Part shown: positions 9,450-29,971 of the stretch, piece after piece
How positions within the stretch are numbered: the stretch's first letter is position 1
How the letters are laid out: the number at the start of each line of letters is the position of its first letter
From: a virus
Lineage: Duplodnaviria > Heunggongvirae > Uroviricota > Caudoviricetes
DNA length: 35,929 bases
Direction: 5' to 3' (one strand)
IMG/VR virus record: IMGVR_UViG_3300011591_000012
Span: 1-35,929 of that record
Notes under the pieces: model-generated
Told to the model about the DNA's origin: nothing
The model's database searches: none
What the model saw: only the letters and a program-made list of their open reading frames with translations
Position numbers and translations under genes: made by a program

Positions 9450-9698
9450 AGCCTTGATTTGCACTCTCTCAATTTCCAACTGACAAAATACGTAGCCAAA
9501 ACGCTATCAAATCTGACAGCCTGCTTTGAGCGAGAAACAGACATGGATGGCATACAGTGAAAGTAGCCGCACAATGAGCATCACTGCAATTCTGAATTCA
9601 AGCTCTAATACTATTGAGACCGTATCATACAGTCACTCGCAAAAATTACTTTACCTGAGTGAAAAAATTGATTCCAAGCAAAATGAAAACTTGTAATT

Positions 9699-9720
9699 CA
9701 TTATTACATGCATAATAATG
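9699..9720. promoter_or_regulatory. 22-bp palindrome (8-bp perfect arms) about 105 bp upstream of the OLD-like gene; candidate operator
   Basis: CATTATTA-catgca-TAATAATG read directly from the sequence; AT-rich context so chance is possible. Confidence 0.2.
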
Positions 9721-9825
9721 AATAAAAACTTGAGCTATATAAACCAAAGTTGTTCCGAATAGTCCGTTGAGACATCACTCGAATTATAGGAATACAAGGT
9801 TTTATTTTTATAAGGAATCGCTCCC

Positions 9826-12090
9826 ATGGGTTTGCAAAGCATAAGAATAAAAAACTTACTATCATTTAATGATGTAATAATAAATTCCCTAGAGGATGTA
9901 AATTGCATTGTAGGGATGAATAATGTTGGCAAATCCAATCTTATGAAAATATTGAAATATTTTTACGACAAACTTGACGACATAAAAGTAATACCTCCTG
10001 ATTTTCATTCTAGTTATACTCCTTCAGGGTCAATAACATTGACTTATGATGTAACAAGAATAAAGAGAATTGTAATGAACCCTAATAACAATGGTCGCTT
10101 TCACAAGCATATTTATAACACTTTATTTAAGCCACAATCATTCATCCGAAAGCCGCAGAAATTCTGTCTTCCTTTCATATCTCCTTTGGGTTTCCAAAGA
10201 AAAAGCACTTATAGCATTACACTCACAATTTCTAAAGATGACTCCGTAACTTGGTCAATTAGCACACCAAATGCCCGGCATCTAATTAAAACTCTATTTC
10301 CTTTTTTCCATATTGAAACCAGACACATTGACTTATACGACTGGAATAGCATATGGAAAATGCTCAGCAGTATAAATTCCTTTAATTTCTCTGAAATAAA
10401 AAAAGAAGAACTCCTTGAGTTTTTGAATGAGAAAATATCAACTAAGCGGGGTAGTTACAAGAAGTATATAGAAAGAGTTGAAAATGTAATCCATACTAAA
10501 CCTTACACCTATAAAGATAAAGTCGTTAATTATCTAAAAATAGTTTTAGATGGCGATATCTTCATAAATAAAGGTGAAGAACTACATGTTCAGTCGGATG
10601 GCACGAACTCTCACAAATATCTTGAAATTATACTTAGCCTATTAATTTCATTAACAAGAACAGAATTTATCAATCCAATTATATATATTGATGAACCTGA
10701 AATTGGGCTACATCCAAAACTTAGCGAGAACTTTATTGAGAACATAAGCCTGACATATAAAAAGTATGATAAAACCCATGAGGAAATTGAGCCTGGAAAA
10801 TATTCAACACCATATCCAACTCTTATATTTAGCACTCATTCTCCGAGTTTACTAAAACTCACGCTAAAATCTTTCTTACATAAACAGCAGGTTTTGCATT
10901 TTTCAAAAGAACGTGACAACTCGACCAAAATTTCAAAATTAAACTCTAAATATAATGACATTAGATTTATAAATATGCTTAGCGATAATGAGGCCCGTCT
11001 ATTCTTTAGTGAATACATTCTATTTGTAGAGGGCGCCACAGAAGTTGAATTGTTTAGAAATTATAATCTGCAAAAGCTGTTTCCAGTACTTAAAAGGTTA
11101 GATGTGTATGATTGCGATGAAGTAATGTTGAAAAATATAAACCCCAGCTACTCAAATGCAGCCATCCCATTTCTAGTAGTAAAGGATATTGATCAGATTG
11201 CCGTTGTTGACTTCGAACATGAACAATTTAAATTTAATTCGAAAGGGAAATCAATTATTAATAAAATCATTAAGAGAGATAAACTACACTATTTTTCGAC
11301 ATACCAAAAACCTTTTCTTAACGCAGCAAAATTTCTTTTAAGCCAAGATGAAAGGAAAGTAACATTCAGTGAAAATGGCCTAAAATTCAGACACTTCAGT
11401 ATAGGCAGAGTTATAAGCGCAGTTAATTTTTTATCCTCTAAAGATAATGTTTATTATACTTCTACAACGATAGAAGGCTCATTGATCAATGAATTCTCTT
11501 TAGAGACATTCTCTTTATGGATCATTGACATAGTAATGAGAAGCTTTAATGTAAATAATAAAAACCCTGTAAAAATGATTAATGCTCTGCTGCAAAAATA
11601 CGATATTAAAACCCAATCAAAACAACTTTTTCCCAAAATACTTTCAAAATGTGAAACAAATCATAACCTACCATTGCGACACATGAGATTATTGAAAATC
11701 ATTAAAATTAGATATGCTAAAGAAATAATTGATGAGTTTAAAAAAACCATCCCCGACGTAAAAGACCAAGTTGCTATCTTGCGCCTTATTTTTAGTGGCA
11801 AAACAGAAACTCTTGTAAGTATAGAAATGCATTATAAAATTGATCAAAAACCGATACGGCAAGATATATTGGATTATATCAAAGCATTAAAGTCAGAAAA
11901 TTTCTCTTTTATGAGTTCTTACATAGGAAAGACTTCTGGATGGGTTACAAGCTTCATTGATTTTAGCCTTAATCATTATTCAGCCCTAGATAAAGAAAAT
12001 GTCGAAAAAAAATTCCGCTTGGCTTTTCCTGAAATTTCGCATATCATCGATCATGCTTCTTCTTCGATAGAAGCTGGAGGGCTCAAATGA
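9826..12090 (+). CDS. OLD-family nuclease: N-terminal ABC-type ATPase plus C-terminal Toprim domain
   Basis: 754 aa, low GC. Walker A GMNNVGKSN near the N-terminus; Walker B/D-loop IYIDEPEIGLHP; Toprim-like ILFVEGATEVE and VVKDIDQ (DxD) in the C-terminal half. Confidence 0.7.
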   Translation: MGLQSIRIKNLLSFNDVIINSLEDVNCIVGMNNVGKSNLMKILKYFYDKLDDIKVIPPDFHSSYTPSGSITLTYDVTRIKRIVMNPNNNGRFHKHIYNTLFKPQSFIRKPQKFCLPFISPLGFQRKSTYSITLTISKDDSVTWSISTPNARHLIKTLFPFFHIETRHIDLYDWNSIWKMLSSINSFNFSEIKKEELLEFLNEKISTKRGSYKKYIERVENVIHTKPYTYKDKVVNYLKIVLDGDIFINKGEELHVQSDGTNSHKYLEIILSLLISLTRTEFINPIIYIDEPEIGLHPKLSENFIENISLTYKKYDKTHEEIEPGKYSTPYPTLIFSTHSPSLLKLTLKSFLHKQQVLHFSKERDNSTKISKLNSKYNDIRFINMLSDNEARLFFSEYILFVEGATEVELFRNYNLQKLFPVLKRLDVYDCDEVMLKNINPSYSNAAIPFLVVKDIDQIAVVDFEHEQFKFNSKGKSIINKIIKRDKLHYFSTYQKPFLNAAKFLLSQDERKVTFSENGLKFRHFSIGRVISAVNFLSSKDNVYYTSTTIEGSLINEFSLETFSLWIIDIVMRSFNVNNKNPVKMINALLQKYDIKTQSKQLFPKILSKCETNHNLPLRHMRLLKIIKIRYAKEIIDEFKKTIPDVKDQVAILRLIFSGKTETLVSIEMHYKIDQKPIRQDILDYIKALKSENFSFMSSYIGKTSGWVTSFIDFSLNHYSALDKENVEKKFRLAFPEISHIIDHASSSIEAGGLK

Positions 12091-12201
12091 GCTGACGCAT
12101 GCCGTCACTTGCTCCAGCAAACACTAGCTCGGATTGTCTTGCGTCCGCTAAGCCGCTTTAAGCCTCACGGGGTGTAAAGATGTTATTGGTATCGAAGAGG
12201 A
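12058..12201 (+). ncRNA. Candidate structured ncRNA (retron msr/msd-like) between the OLD-like and RT genes
   Basis: 12-nt inverted repeat with one mismatch: TCTTCTTCGATA (12058-12069) versus TATCGAAGAGGA (12190-12201). Enclosed region is GC-rich against AT-rich flanks and has local stems GCTGGAG(12073-12079)/CTCCAGC(12111-12117) and TGACG(12093-12097)/CGTCA(12103-12107). The second repeat sits just upstream of the RT start. Confidence 0.25.
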
Positions 12202-12210
12202 AGCTTTTAC

Positions 12211-13308
12211 ATGAAACATAAAATTAATAAAATTAACAATGATTTTTATAAAAATTTTTATCTAAGAGAAACATTCTCCGATGATATTATTATGACTCAC
12301 GGAGTCCCTGAGATTTCCAATGACGATTATAAAAGCATTTCATTAAAGAATAGATTATGTTTCACTATAAGAAAAAGCTCCCCGCATAAAAAAATACAAG
12401 AAAGACTTATAAAAAATTTCCTAGTAAAAGTTCCTCTTAGCTCACCTGCAATTGCCTATCGTAAAAAATTAAACTATTTGAATTTTCTAGAACCTCATAT
12501 CCATGGTGAGAACTTTTGTCGAATTGACTTATGTAATTTTTTTCATAACATAAACTATAACTTTGCAAGGGAGTGTTTCAAATCCTACTTTGAAGATGAA
12601 TATCTGGTAAATAAAAAAATCAAAGTTATTGATGCATTTTTAAATAGTTTATCTATTGAGATTGTAGTCAACAATAAAAAGAAAAAAATATTTCCAATGG
12701 GATTCGCCACATCACCTTTCATATCCAATATAATTTTCAGAAAGTTAGATATTTTAATTAAAAGTTTGTGTGACAAAAGAAGCATCATTTACACTCGTTA
12801 TGCTGATGATATGCTTTTTTCGAGCTCCGGGAAAGACAAACTTCTTGGAAGTGAACATTTTGACAACGAGATATCAACTATTGTCAATACGGCAGGACTG
12901 TCCCTCAACAAACATAAAAAAATATTTAAGAAAGGCATAATCTCACTAAACGGCTATGTAATAGAAAATAAAAATGGAGGGGGAGAGAGAGGGAGTATAA
13001 GAATATCTAATGGAAAAATGTATTTAATACGGAAAGCACTAGATAAATTTAAAAAGGGATATTCTAAAGAGCATATTTGCAAAAAAGTATTTTCTGTTAA
13101 ATCACCAACTGTCAAGTATAATAACAATGCAGATCAGTTTGTAACGGATTTTTATAATTCACAATTCTCTAATAAGTTAGCTGGTTATCGTTCATATTTA
13201 ATATCATTAGTAAAATTTAATGATAAATTCAGATGTTTTCACGAAAACGAAATCACCAAATACTCAGTGATTATTGATGAAATTTCTAATGCACTGCTAA
13301 AACCCTAG
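12211..13308 (+). CDS. Reverse transcriptase, small retron/Abi-like (fingers-palm only)
   Basis: 365 aa, low GC. RT motifs read in the translation: motif A-like FCRIDLCNFFHNI, motif B-like FPMGFATSPFISNIIF, motif C YTRYADDMLFS (YADD box), motif D-like GLSLNKHK. GAGGA RBS 8 nt upstream. Confidence 0.75.
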   Translation: MKHKINKINNDFYKNFYLRETFSDDIIMTHGVPEISNDDYKSISLKNRLCFTIRKSSPHKKIQERLIKNFLVKVPLSSPAIAYRKKLNYLNFLEPHIHGENFCRIDLCNFFHNINYNFARECFKSYFEDEYLVNKKIKVIDAFLNSLSIEIVVNNKKKKIFPMGFATSPFISNIIFRKLDILIKSLCDKRSIIYTRYADDMLFSSSGKDKLLGSEHFDNEISTIVNTAGLSLNKHKKIFKKGIISLNGYVIENKNGGGERGSIRISNGKMYLIRKALDKFKKGYSKEHICKKVFSVKSPTVKYNNNADQFVTDFYNSQFSNKLAGYRSYLISLVKFNDKFRCFHENEITKYSVIIDEISNALLKP

Positions 13309-13730
13309 CCTTAGAAAGTTAATGTTTTGGCCCTAAAGCAAGGGCCTTAATAGTAAAAATAGTTACCAGCATAAGTATTCCTTCAACTAATCACACAAAT
13401 TAACGTTAGCAACGTTCCCTTTTTACACCGTCTGAGCACTAAGCTGTCGGTCATTCTGGTCTACCATACTATTATACGTAACATCCAAGAGTGTTCCTGC
13501 AAACGGTCGTAGAAAATGCGGGCTTCGCCATTTTCTGGCCGACGCCGGTCTCGTCGAGTTCTTCTGACTGTTCAAGTGCAAATGCGCCTGTAGGTATCCC
13601 TACAAAAGAAACCATCAACTTTTAGATAGTATCTGGCACTCCAACTCCCGCTGTTGACTCGGAGCGGACTGTCAGATTAGGCTTTACTCTGTACCATAGA
13701 TACGTTAGCTCACTCCAGAGATCATACAAC

Positions 13731-28128: not shown

Positions 28129-28548
28129 CTAATCATCTTCTAAAGGTGGAATTTTGATGCCACTAATTAGCAGTACTTTCCGGTATGCCTCAAAAATAAT
28201 GTTGTGTGTTTTTTGTAAATCATCGAGCATTTTTTGCCGTCCTGCTGGGGTATCTTTGGCAAAATTATGAGCGCGAAAAAAATCATGTGCCAAGTAGTTT
28301 CTGGCTTTAAGAGCATCTGACACATACTCCAGTGTATCAGCATCCTCCACCATCCTAGACTTCAGTGCGTAATTCAATTTACCCAGCGTGTATTTATCCA
28401 TTTCTAAAAACTGTTTTTTCAGCGACTGTATATCTTTCCCCTGACTCATATCATACTCAGTGATAACATTTATCAACTCAGTCTCCAGTAATTGAGCTGC
28501 TTCCGAAGCATAACCAAATTTCCAATAAACCGTATCAAGCGTCACCAT
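28129..28548 (-). CDS. Small alpha-helical protein with HEPN-like Rx4HxF motif (candidate RNase or partner protein)
   Basis: 139 aa, low GC; motif ALKARNYLAHDFF resembles the HEPN Rx4-6H signature; GGGGA RBS; 91 bp downstream of the HNH gene on the same strand. Confidence 0.45.
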   Translation of the reverse strand: MVTLDTVYWKFGYASEAAQLLETELINVITEYDMSQGKDIQSLKKQFLEMDKYTLGKLNYALKSRMVEDADTLEYVSDALKARNYLAHDFFRAHNFAKDTPAGRQKMLDDLQKTHNIIFEAYRKVLLISGIKIPPLEDD

Positions 28549-28639
28549 ATAATCTATTCCCCATATAACAAATCACACCCCAAATTAAATCATAATACAT
28601 AATTAAATCTAACGCCTCGCTGCACCAGAAGAAGTCATG

Positions 28640-29971
28640 TTAACGCTTATCATGGAACTTTTTCCATTTTGTCATCAACTTTCCAGCATCAAGTTCTACA
28701 TGATGCGGTTGTAGAGTTTTACCCTCAAACATAGTTTTGTGGATACAATTAATAGAAAAATGAACCGTTAAGTCCTCTGGATTAATCCCCATTAATCCTT
28801 TATCAAACATTCGGTGTAAACTTACTTCAAGTAACAGGCCATTAGATGTGTTATTATTTGCTGATTCTGTTATTGCTTCAATATGTGCGGCTTCCAATAT
28901 CCCCTCTGGCAATGGATAGCCAGTAATAGCACATCTGCCATTGAAGTTATCCCAAACACGGCGTTTGAAATCAGCTTGATCTCCAGCATGACGGACTTTG
29001 TGAGTAACCTCGACTGTTCGTCCTGTAGCACAGGTATCGTTTGCGGCCTTGAAAGGATTAGTTAGACTTTCATTAATGGCTATATCCGTTCCATCCATGA
29101 TAAGAGATATTTCATTATTGGGTTCGGATGATGTTAATGGACTTATGTACTGATTGCTTAAAAAAGTCATACTAGATTCTTCATCAGTCGCGAGTTTCCA
29201 CGCTTCTGATTGTGTCATTGTTAGCAATGCCGTTTGATAAACTTGCTTATTAAAATAACGTTTATCTTTCTTGTCACTCCCCATATTAATAGTACTAGAT
29301 TTAATCGGAAGTGTTTTATCACCAATTAGTAGATCACGTATTTCTACAGTCTCTTCTAAGGTATCAATAGGAGCTACTATAGGGTTAGTCAACGGGTTAT
29401 CTACATGATCTACGTGGTTGTGTCGTAAATGCCACTCTATAGCACTATCTTTTATATGTATCTCGCAGACAGGGCATACAATAAGCCCCATAGATGTTAC
29501 AGGTAGCTTTTTGCCACCGATTAAGCGTAATGTATTTGCATTCTGGTTATGTACTTTCTTTTGGTTCTGTGTCAGTACACTACGCTTAGCCTCTAAACGG
29601 GTCGGAATCTTAGCAAGATTAAGCGATTTACGGCTCTCTTGTCTCTCAAGATCATAGATCCGAATCCCTGCTCCAGTTTTGATTTTTGTCCACATAGAGA
29701 TAGAACTAAGGAATTTATGTCCATGTACTTTTTCATAATCAGCATAAGCTTGCAAAGTAGCAGTGGAACTATCTAATCCTTTTTTACGGAGTGCTGTATA
29801 TTGCTGAAAAAGATTAATAGCATGAGCTGTAATAGAGCGCCTATTCTCTATAATTTGCGTTTTTTTTGCTGCTTGTTCTGCTTGCAATGCTTTTTGTTCA
29901 GGGGTAAGCGACTTCTTTTTGGCTTTCTTGGTTCTTTTCTTACTCAAAGTTTTCTTACTGTTATTGTTCAT
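28640..29971 (-). CDS. HNH-family nuclease with lysine-rich N-terminus and C2H2-like zinc-binding motif
   Basis: 443 aa, low GC. C-terminal segment CAITGYPLPEGILEAAHIEAI...NGLLLEVSLHRMFDKGLMGINPEDLTVHFS matches the HNH_2-type pattern. Central CPVCEIHIKDSAIEWHLRHNH; N-terminal KKTLSKKRTKKAKKK basic stretch. Confidence 0.6.
   Translation of the reverse strand: MNNNSKKTLSKKRTKKAKKKSLTPEQKALQAEQAAKKTQIIENRRSITAHAINLFQQYTALRKKGLDSSTATLQAYADYEKVHGHKFLSSISMWTKIKTGAGIRIYDLERQESRKSLNLAKIPTRLEAKRSVLTQNQKKVHNQNANTLRLIGGKKLPVTSMGLIVCPVCEIHIKDSAIEWHLRHNHVDHVDNPLTNPIVAPIDTLEETVEIRDLLIGDKTLPIKSSTINMGSDKKDKRYFNKQVYQTALLTMTQSEAWKLATDEESSMTFLSNQYISPLTSSEPNNEISLIMDGTDIAINESLTNPFKAANDTCATGRTVEVTHKVRHAGDQADFKRRVWDNFNGRCAITGYPLPEGILEAAHIEAITESANNNTSNGLLLEVSLHRMFDKGLMGINPEDLTVHFSINCIHKTMFEGKTLQPHHVELDAGKLMTKWKKFHDKR

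Follow-up and report, generated by a model that had tools for sequence, protein, structure and literature searches.

A probable type I-B2 (Retron-Eco8 family) msr-msd RNA between the effector and reverse transcriptase genes of a P2-like prophage cassette

The stretch of DNA analyzed here in full, hereafter the window, comprises 35,929 nucleotides of a caudoviricete virus (IMG/VR record IMGVR_UViG_3300011591_000012). In the cargo ("moron") slot of the tail-gene region of a P2-like prophage, it contains a cassette of two protein-coding genes:

9826..12090, plus strand: effector, 754-aa OLD-family ATPase-Toprim nuclease (Pfam, PADLOC and PDB matches)
12211..13308, plus strand: retron reverse transcriptase (RT), 365 aa, with YADD catalytic motif (Pfam RVT_1, PADLOC and PDB matches)

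The effector harbors the Pfam domains AAA_15, AAA_21 and OLD-like_TOPRIM, matches the PADLOC model ATPase-Toprim_I-B (1.6e-210) and aligns end to end with the PDB protein "Retron Eco8 OLD nuclease" (3e-227). Its translation includes a Walker A motif (GMNNVGKS) and Toprim motifs IV (EGATE, of the form EGxxE) and V (DID, of the form DxD), the latter two in agreement with type I-B2 as characterized in Table 1 of Mestre (2020), namely an OLD-like protein with an ABC-type ATPase, Toprim motif IV EGxxE and motif V DxD. The RT matches the PADLOC model RT_I-B (2.7e-106), the best 25 of its 44 PADLOC matches all being retron RT models, and over residues 6-363 it matches the PDB protein "Retron Eco8 reverse transcriptase" (6.5e-88), with its YADD aligned to that of Eco8; it is 41% identical to the Eco8-type RT P0017. 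In RefSeq, the two products are named "retron Eco8 family effector endonuclease" and "reverse transcriptase domain-containing protein", respectively, and the cassette carries no RNA feature. Wherever a homologous locus extends far enough upstream, from Proteobacteria to Firmicutes, the RT gene is directly preceded by the effector gene on the same strand, with a spacer of at least 100 nt between the two (120 nt in the window).

The end of the effector gene and the spacer are bracketed by a terminal inverted repeat with the following arms:

12053..12069, plus strand: IRa1, the 5' arm (core 12055-12069, GCTTCTTCTTCGATA), overlapping effector codons A-S-S-S-I; covariation
12190..12206, plus strand: IRa2, the 3' arm (core 12190-12204, TATCGAAGAGGAAGC); repeat search and covariation

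The earlier note had reported 11 of 12 matching positions between TCTTCTTCGATA (12058-12069) and the reverse complement of TATCGAAGAGGA (12190-12201). This observation was confirmed, and the repeat proved longer and stronger than first claimed: a repeat search returned 15-nt arms (12055-12069 and 12190-12204) with 93% complementarity and 120 nt between them, the sole mismatch being a G-U pair at the RNA level, and the arms reach 17 nt (12053-12069 and 12190-12206) if one more mismatch is allowed. The first arm lies, as had been stated, inside the final codons of the OLD-like gene, the stop codon of the 754-aa open reading frame being at 12088-12090, while the RT start codon (ATG, 12211) stands 6 nt past the end of the core second arm. 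A purine-rich GAGGA stretch in IRa2, 10 nt upstream of this ATG, is probably the RT ribosome-binding site. The 120 nt enclosed by the repeat have a GC content of 52%, and the claim of a GC-rich spacer holds, with values of 0.475-0.517 over 12020-12199 versus 0.26-0.36 in both flanking genes. The few-percent probability of a chance origin was equally well estimated for the 12-nt repeat: when the local 213 nt were shuffled 1000 times with dinucleotides preserved, 25 of the shuffles contained such a repeat with one mismatch or fewer; the actual 15-nt repeat was reached in only two of 3000 local shuffles. The entire window contains only two such repeats (inner distance 60-200). The second, also of 15 nt (9695 / 9872), is an AT-only, low-complexity match around the effector start, devoid of conservation, and was rejected. 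RNA folding of 12050-12215, which had been suggested as a check, gave -58.7 kcal/mol (z = -3.14 relative to shuffles).

The repeat is present in related cassettes: it was found at the same site in 33 proteobacterial homologous cassettes, with the spacer flanked by ...GATA|G and G|TATC.... Among 21 distinct homologues, 10 of the 15 terminal-repeat pairs show compensatory changes on both sides, and 96.8% of the cells are paired, compared with 40-50% when the partners are slid; none of 500 shuffles matched the observed covariation values. The loci for this first count were picked for having an anchored repeat, which is a selection bias; a covariance-model search over all loci takes most of it away, and a covariance-model alignment of 33 sequences gave the same outcome. 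The GATAG at the end of the first arm is invariant, while its reading frame varies by lineage (S-I-E, P-D-S or R-stop) or it falls past the stop codon, and the constraint therefore acts on the RNA and not on the protein. The ncRNA is 96-97% identical to the copies in Serratia and Pectobacterium, whereas both protein genes are merely 80-83% identical.

At gathering thresholds, a search of the whole window against Rfam found CyaR alone and no family at the ncRNA, and E-value mode (E up to 10) over 11900-12400 returned only chance-level matches (snoRNA, THF-II), all far under gathering scores. Because Rfam gave no support, a dedicated covariance model (R1) was trained on Eco8 and 12 further proteobacterial members of the family, excluding the window and its close relatives, loci L001, L003 and L004. 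R1 matches 12053-12206 on the plus strand over all of its 160 positions (1-160) with 94.8 bits (E ~1.2e-22), and the 35.9-kb window holds no second match at E up to 10. Each proteobacterial locus yielded one match, every time between the effector and RT genes, including all those that the simple anchored-repeat search had missed (10 proteobacterial loci, in addition to all Firmicutes loci). All 47 Firmicutes loci, with spacers of 160-350 nt, escaped detection with R1. A megablast search of the INPHARED phage collection with the cassette gave no match.

Between the two arms, the following elements can be delineated:

12070, plus strand: predicted branching (priming) guanosine, immediately 3' of IRa1 and equivalent to Eco8 rG18
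12070..12127, plus strand: msr, 58 nt (RNA fold, covariation and Eco8 homology)
12073-12079 / 12112-12118, plus strand: msr closing stem, 7 bp (RNA fold)
12080-12084 / 12089-12093, plus strand: msr hairpin a, containing the effector stop codon (12088-12090)
12094-12097 / 12103-12106, plus strand: msr hairpin b (RNA fold and covariation)
AAACACUAG, plus strand: msr single-stranded tail, a conserved block
12119..12188, plus strand: msd template (homology to Eco8)
Reverse complement of 12119-12188: predicted msDNA, 70 nt, 5'-CAATAACATC...CTAGTGTTT-3' (Eco8 homology)
12189, plus strand: opposing G, an invariant G directly 5' of IRa2, with its role as described for Eco8

At the sequence level, G12070 and G12189 are invariant columns in an alignment of 23 ncRNAs, and G12070 coincides with Eco8 G18 once the Eco8 numbering is placed on locus L083. 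The msr folds as RNA with -21.4 kcal/mol (z = -2.81) into the same topology as the Eco8 msr, whose fold in the same analysis reproduces the published RSLa and RSLb. Hairpin b shows compensatory changes in all five of its pairs, and hairpin a differs in Serratia by a G>A change at 12081 accompanied by a pairing change, C>T, at 12092. The closing stem (helix 2) lost its register in several lineages when aligned with MAFFT (just 69% of cells paired), and that alignment was set aside for this helix; in the covariance-model alignment 82.5% of the cells are paired and the stem also covaries. The conserved blocks of the msd in the alignment are ACTAG and CAC..GTGTAAAGATG. The ends of the msDNA were placed according to Eco8, in which the G adjoining the opposing G templates dC1, and rA73 of AAAAAC is the pairing partner of dT75; correspondingly, the predicted 3' end, GTGTTT, would remain paired to the msr sequence AAACAC (12119-12124). 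Folded as DNA, the predicted msDNA is weak (-4.9 kcal/mol, z = +0.61, no better than shuffles). Two DNA stem-loops, clear in Eco8, can be drawn in the msd, but they are marginal, and since the DNA fold is not significant their placement here follows from homology.

Two promoter-like sites were noted in a consensus scan:

9691..9719, plus strand: promoter-like site (TTGTAA, 17 nt, AATAAT), candidate operon promoter upstream of the effector
12019..12047, plus strand: candidate internal ncRNA promoter (TTGGCT, 17 nt, TATCAT), within the 3' end of the effector open reading frame

Both -35 and -10 boxes of the upstream site are kept in the Serratia and Pectobacterium cassettes. The candidate internal -10 box ends 5 nt upstream of the first base of IRa1, and homologous loci carry a T-AT[ACT]-[ACT]T hexamer 4-10 nt upstream of IRa1; in nearly all of the 31 loci read in frame, T is the last base of the codon preceding a conserved hydrophobic pair (II, IL or IV), across eight different amino acids. 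For Eco8, the ncRNA start was placed 10 nt after a predicted -10 box (Millman et al., 2020). Since the scan as a whole found sites no commoner than in shuffles, it is this conservation that argues for the internal promoter, and both sites are presumed, from their sequences, to act as promoters.

Altogether, we conclude with high confidence that 12053-12206 (plus strand) is the msr-msd ncRNA of a type I-B2 retron of the Retron-Eco8 family, consisting of effector, ncRNA and RT. The I-B gene pair, the conserved and covarying repeat, the R1 match and the Eco8-like msr fold all support the earlier suggestion of an msr/msd-like ncRNA, and the computational checks proposed in the note all had a positive outcome; that part stands, while the RNA is not of a new kind, belonging to the very family from which Retron-Eco8 was discovered. 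It is a diverged new member of this known family and, conceptually, nothing new. The published Eco8 coordinates (G18, A28-U45, A46-U61, A73-C78, G81, dC1 and dT75) map exactly onto L083 (374-aa RT), which fits the numbering at every position, and the bases homologous to these positions are present in the window. Another E. coli locus, L002, was considered as Eco8 itself and rejected, the published numbering falling on wrong bases (rU45, rA73).

That the retron has decayed, its RNA motif being a relic yielding neither msDNA nor defence, would sit well with the rarity of the cassette in E. coli (2 of 5426 complete genomes) and with the weak predicted structure of the msDNA, but both open reading frames are intact and retain their catalytic motifs (effector: Walker A, EGxxE and DxD; RT: YADD), and the ncRNA is better conserved across genera than the genes. 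Moreover, the ncRNA differs from the Serratia copy at four positions, two of which compensate each other as a pair, which indicates ongoing selection, and we regard decay as improbable. Slightly less credible still is an mRNA element between the two cistrons, for instance a processing site, a stabilizing hairpin, an attenuator or a translational regulator of the RT, whose stem would hide the RT ribosome-binding site with no msDNA being made. The position of GAGGA within IRa2 is what such an element would predict, and with IRa1 inside the upstream open reading frame the element would be present on any polycistronic mRNA; left unexplained, however, are the invariant G on either side of the stem, the conserved and covarying internal msr hairpins, the conserved AAACACUAG and GTGTAAAGATG blocks and the full-length match to a model containing the ncRNA of Eco8, which has been validated by experiment. 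A regulatory side-effect on translation of the RT would fit a retron ncRNA equally well and is no true alternative to it. A chance match in a GC-rich spacer, which the 2.5% frequency of the 12-nt version (11/12) among local shuffles might have allowed, has a negligible probability given the scarcity of the real 15-nt repeat among shuffles and is refuted by covariation, the same register with compensatory changes recurring in 33 homologous loci.

For the type I-B2 retron, msDNA synthesis and anti-phage defence by the window cassette are inferred by analogy, and the whole mechanism outlined here is drawn by homology from Eco8. The RNA would be transcribed from the -10-like box in the last effector codons, or processed from the operon transcript, and pairing of IRa1 with IRa2 would bring G12070 opposite G12189. 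The RT would then prime on the 2'-OH of G12070 and copy from 12188 back to 12119, producing a DNA of ~70 nt that would remain joined to the 58-nt msr at the branch point and paired with AAACAC. The RT, msDNA and effector would form an autoinhibited complex, from which a phage cue acting on the msDNA would release the Toprim nuclease and lead to abortive infection. Given its location in the cargo slot of a P2-like prophage, the cassette probably protects the lysogen from other phages. Since the ncRNA and RT are only 62 and 41% identical to those of Eco8, respectively, trigger and effector behavior may differ, and the divergent msd sequence likewise means that the trigger could differ. More speculatively, and with considerable doubt on our part, the shorter and differently structured msDNA (70 nt, another second stem-loop, weak DNA hairpins) might respond to another phage cue or spectrum of phage SSBs. 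The cassette, given its tail-gene cargo slot, might serve mainly as a prophage weapon against competing phages, and the codon-embedded -10 box might allow the ncRNA and RT (the "antitoxin") to be expressed separately from the nuclease and in larger amounts.

With this analysis, a cassette labeled in RefSeq at the protein level alone gains an unannotated ncRNA gene, and exact predicted coordinates of the branching G, msr, msd and 70-nt msDNA become available for a natural Eco8 variant. It also documents that the cargo slot among the tail genes of a P2-like prophage holds a complete type I-B2 retron. Natural Eco8 variants are of use for comparisons of trigger specificity and can serve as alternative scaffolds in retron-based DNA production.

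Retron-Eco8 of E. coli 200499 is a three-part anti-phage system of type I-B2 (Millman et al., 2020) with cryo-EM structures from 2025-2026 (e.g. PDB 9lbq and 9p4j). It was found in 2020 from a large conserved spacer between ATPase and RT genes, the same reasoning as that applied here; strong expression of its ncRNA has been reported, as has production of branched RNA-DNA msDNA with a 2'-5' linkage, which has been shown for Eco8 only; defence is lost upon a G18C mutation, and this abortive-infection defence is triggered by phage SSB bound to the msDNA. The window cassette shares with it the order of OLD effector, ncRNA and RT, an IRa1 ending in ...CTTCTTCTTCGATA followed by the branching G within the C-terminal effector codons A-S-S-S-I-E, an opposing G followed by TATCG..., an msr made of a 7-bp closing stem and two hairpins, a tail A(A/C)ACUAG whose first six bases pair, in the window by prediction, with the msDNA 3' end, the GTGTAAAGAT block kept in the msd, and the Toprim EGxxE and DxD and RT YADD motifs. 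Apart from the RT and ncRNA divergence given above, the window differs from Eco8 in a shorter msr (58 versus 64 nt) and predicted msDNA (70 versus 75 nt), in the sequence of the second msd stem-loop, in the lower thermodynamic stability of both DNA stem-loops and in its location in a P2-like prophage.

The second E. coli retron of the Eco8 family (L002, NZ_CP027701) occurs in 36 complete E. coli genomes. It agrees with the window cassette in architecture and in the sequence of IRa1, and a 73-nt block running from the 3' part of the msd through IRa2 to the RT start shares 88% identity, sufficient for detection by megablast. Its RT and effector are 43 and 52% identical to those of the window, respectively, its shorter msr folds with a single clear hairpin, and it is located beside IS630 remnants and not, as here, in the slot among the tail genes of a P2-like prophage. 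The classical retrons Ec86 (Eco1, type II-A) and Ec83 (Eco4, type I-A), whose RTs match that of the window at E values of 1e-12 to 1e-14, follow the same general scheme of terminal inverted repeats, a branching G and an msr ahead of the msd, with the RT directly after them, but their ncRNAs lie upstream of all protein genes and their effectors, of other types, follow the RT. Finally, Eco8-family msDNA has two DNA stem-loops, in contrast to the single long one of Ec86 and Ec83.

The spacer between the effector gene (an OLD-type ATPase-Toprim ORF, 9826-12090, + strand) and the reverse transcriptase gene (RT; 12211-13308, + strand) is bounded by a terminal inverted repeat, as the earlier note had observed, and this observation is confirmed. 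The two 12-mers described there are in place, with 11 of the 12 positions matching, and the arms are longer than first noted (GCTTCTTCTTCGATA, 12055-12069, and TATCGAAGAGGAAGC, 12190-12204; 15 nt, 93% complementary, 120 nt apart), the sole mismatch being a G-U pair in RNA; they grow to 17 nt if one further mismatch is allowed. The first arm lies, as claimed, within the final codons of the 754-aa effector ORF, and the second is close upstream of RT, with 6 nt between the end of the 15-nt arm and the ATG of the 365-aa ORF. The spacer is indeed GC-rich (GC 0.48-0.52 vs 0.26-0.36 in both genes). A chance origin of a few percent had been estimated for the repeat, in agreement with the 2.5% of dinucleotide-preserving shuffles of the local region that contained the 12-nt version, while the 15-nt version was reached in 2 of 3000 such shuffles and only two repeats of this quality occur in the whole window. 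RNA folding of 12050-12215, a check proposed in the same note, gave -58.7 kcal/mol (z = -3.14).

Both flanking genes are of the Retron-Eco8 type. In the upstream protein, an OLD-like Toprim domain accompanies the ATPase domains AAA_15 and AAA_21. The protein is recognised by PADLOC as ATPase-Toprim_I-B (1.6e-210) and aligns end to end with the solved 'Retron Eco8 OLD nuclease' (3e-227). Its Toprim motifs, EGATE and DID, correspond to the EGxxE and DxD signature of subtype I-B2 (Mestre et al.). RVT_1 identifies the downstream protein as a reverse transcriptase, with RT_I-B as the top PADLOC model (2.7e-106), and the solved Eco8 RT aligns with residues 6-363 (6.5e-88), the YADD motifs being in register. 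Identical proteins of E. coli UPEC85 are listed in RefSeq as 'retron Eco8 family effector endonuclease' and 'reverse transcriptase domain-containing protein', with no RNA feature annotated between them. The cassette is rare in E. coli (2 of 5426 complete genomes).

The RT search returned 449 relatives at E <= 1e-20, from which 80 genomic loci were retrieved, one genome per species. In all loci with sufficient upstream DNA, an OLD-like gene directly precedes RT on the same strand. Spacers measure 100-175 nt in Gamma- and Epsilonproteobacteria; those of Firmicutes are 160-350 nt long. The layout seen in the window recurs in most proteobacterial loci, where the strongest inverted repeat of the spacer has ...GATA|G as its 5' side, G|T(A/G)TC... 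as its 3' side, and ends 1-10 nt before RT; the arms differ among loci in a compensatory manner, e.g., GCTTCAACCCGATA / TATCGGGTTGAAGC, GTTTCCGCTTCGATA / TATCAAAGCGGAAAC and AACTTTAGTCTGATA / TATCAGGCTAAAGTT.

Compensatory changes at the repeat, which the earlier note had named as a test, were found in an alignment of 23 ncRNA sequences (21 distinct), whose loci were chosen for having the repeat, a possible bias of the counts: pairing extends to 96.8% of cells in the terminal helix, where 10 of 15 pairs changed on both sides, as did 5 of 5 pairs of an internal 5-bp hairpin. None of 500 shuffles reached the observed covariation scores, and sliding the partners by 1-3 columns lowered pairing to 40-50%. 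Because of this selection, a covariance model of the Eco8-family ncRNA (R1) was built from 13 sequences, including Eco8, with the window and its near relatives (L001, L003 and L004) excluded. R1 matches the window once (12053-12206, + strand, over its full 160 positions; 94.8 bits, E ~ 1.2e-22), with no further match on either strand at E up to 10. Each proteobacterial locus likewise has one match, always between effector and RT, including ten overlooked by the simple repeat search. In a 33-sequence alignment, which leans to R1's structure because it was fitted to R1, 90% of cells are paired (43-46% when slid), with double changes in 22 of 26 pairs. The Firmicutes loci keep the order effector-spacer-RT and gave no R1 match; a Firmicutes ncRNA variant is implied by the label 'IB2 Proteobacteria/Firmicutes' of Mestre et al.

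The invariant GATAG is read as S-I-E in the lineage of the window, as P-D-S in another and with a stop codon within it (R-stop) in a third, and lies downstream of the effector stop in two Epsilonproteobacteria; judged from these reading frames, the constraint acts on RNA, not on protein. Compared with the Serratia and Pectobacterium cassettes, the window cassette is best conserved in its ncRNA (96-97% identity vs 80-83% for both protein genes). The ncRNA differs from the Serratia copy at four positions, two of which (12081 G>A and 12092 C>T) compensate each other within an msr hairpin. The final ~12 effector codons (12019-12090, + strand) serve three uses, namely protein, a -10-like box, and the 5' repeat arm (IRa1) with branching G and msr start; the effector 3' end overlaps the ncRNA region in the same way in L002-L033 and in the Eco8-type locus L083.

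The anatomy of the ncRNA was transferred from Eco8 through the alignment. The RT of L083 (374 aa) shows one visible difference from the solved Eco8 chain in their alignment (V32 in L083, A32 in the chain). When L083 is numbered from the start of its 17-nt IRa1 (position 1), all published landmarks fall on the correct bases (rG18, rA28-rU45, rA46-rU61, rA73-rC78 and rG81), dC1 being templated by the G beside the opposing G and dT75 lying opposite rA73.

Parts of the window ncRNA predicted by homology to Eco8
12053-12069, +, IRa1
12070, +, predicted branching G
12070-12127, +, msr, 58 nt
12073-12079 / 12112-12118, +, msr closing stem
12080-12093, +, msr hairpin a
12094-12106, +, msr hairpin b
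12119-12127, +, msr tail AAACACUAG
12119-12188, +, msd template, 70 nt
12189, +, opposing G
12190-12206, +, IRa2 (3' repeat arm)

Hairpin a contains the effector stop codon. Folded by itself, the window msr gave -21.4 kcal/mol (z = -2.81), with a topology common to the window and Eco8, whereas the msd is the divergent part. Folding of the Eco8 msDNA as DNA reproduced both published stem-loops; the predicted window msDNA folds weakly (-4.9 kcal/mol, z = +0.61), with homologous stems drawable.

A promoter-like TTGGCT-17-TATCAT ends at 12047 (+ strand), 5 nt upstream of IRa1, in a scan where promoter-like sites overall were not enriched over shuffles. The family shares a T-AT[ACT]-[ACT]T hexamer placed 4-10 nt before IRa1, and T is the third base of the codon preceding a conserved hydrophobic pair (II, IL or IV) in nearly all 31 in-frame loci, as read from the codon table, while this codon encodes eight different amino acids. 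The start of the Eco8 ncRNA was likewise set from a predicted -10 box (Millman et al.), and the R1 match on L083 (1738-1902) is 165 nt, the same length as their Eco8 ncRNA. Within IRa2, GAGGA probably serves as the ribosome-binding site of RT, judged by its sequence. Another promoter-like site, at 9691-9719 (+ strand) upstream of the effector, is kept in close relatives, its -35 and -10 boxes being conserved in the Serratia and Pectobacterium cassettes. It is overlapped by an 11-bp perfect palindrome (ATTCATTATTA ... TAATAATGAAT, 6 nt between arms, 9696-9723, + strand, ~100 nt upstream of the effector ATG), which is not conserved in these cassettes and may be an operator, or nothing. Some 20 nt past the stop of RT lies a GC-rich hairpin (GGCCCTAAAGCAAGGGCC, 13330-13347, + strand) that lacks a clear T-run and is not among the sites reported by the terminator scan; the retron transcript may end here.

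The window holds a complete P2-like prophage from integrase (high end) to ogr (low end), at about 2700-35929, adjoining a CyaR/RyeE sRNA gene (2535-2619, + strand; 98.9 bits in Rfam). On the chromosomal side are trhP and a ParD/ParE toxin-antitoxin pair. The cassette, on the strand opposite to the tail genes, is flanked by the tail-fibre assembly and tail sheath genes, a slot that in P2 is occupied by the non-essential Z/fun gene. Variable loci of P2-like phages are known to carry defence systems, retrons among them. A second cargo slot (28129-29971, - strand), between the replication endonuclease and portal genes, encodes a 443-aa protein, assigned to a family only through a C-terminal HNH_2 nuclease domain, and a second protein of 139 aa without match in Pfam or PADLOC. 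This pair may be an uncharacterised defence system, since the slot is a variable locus known to hold such systems in P2-like phages.

Reading the spacer as an msr/msd-like ncRNA is upheld by the R1 match, by the Eco8-type effector and RT on either side, and by the presence of every Eco8-family feature that can be tested in silico. The window ncRNA belongs to the family from which Retron-Eco8 was discovered, after which expression by RNA-seq, synthesis of msDNA and defence loss in mutants were demonstrated (Millman et al.), and whose structured RNA was classed as family IB2 (Mestre et al.). By cryo-EM, Eco8 is a 4:4:4 complex of RT, msDNA and OLD, activated when phage SSB binds the msDNA; for the window copy, we infer msDNA synthesis, trigger and defence phenotype. 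Compared with Eco8 (41% RT and 62% ncRNA identity), the msr and msd of the window element are shorter, its second msd stem-loop differs, and it lies in a prophage. These are differences in degree only. With this element, the well-characterised Eco8 family gains a new, diverged member.
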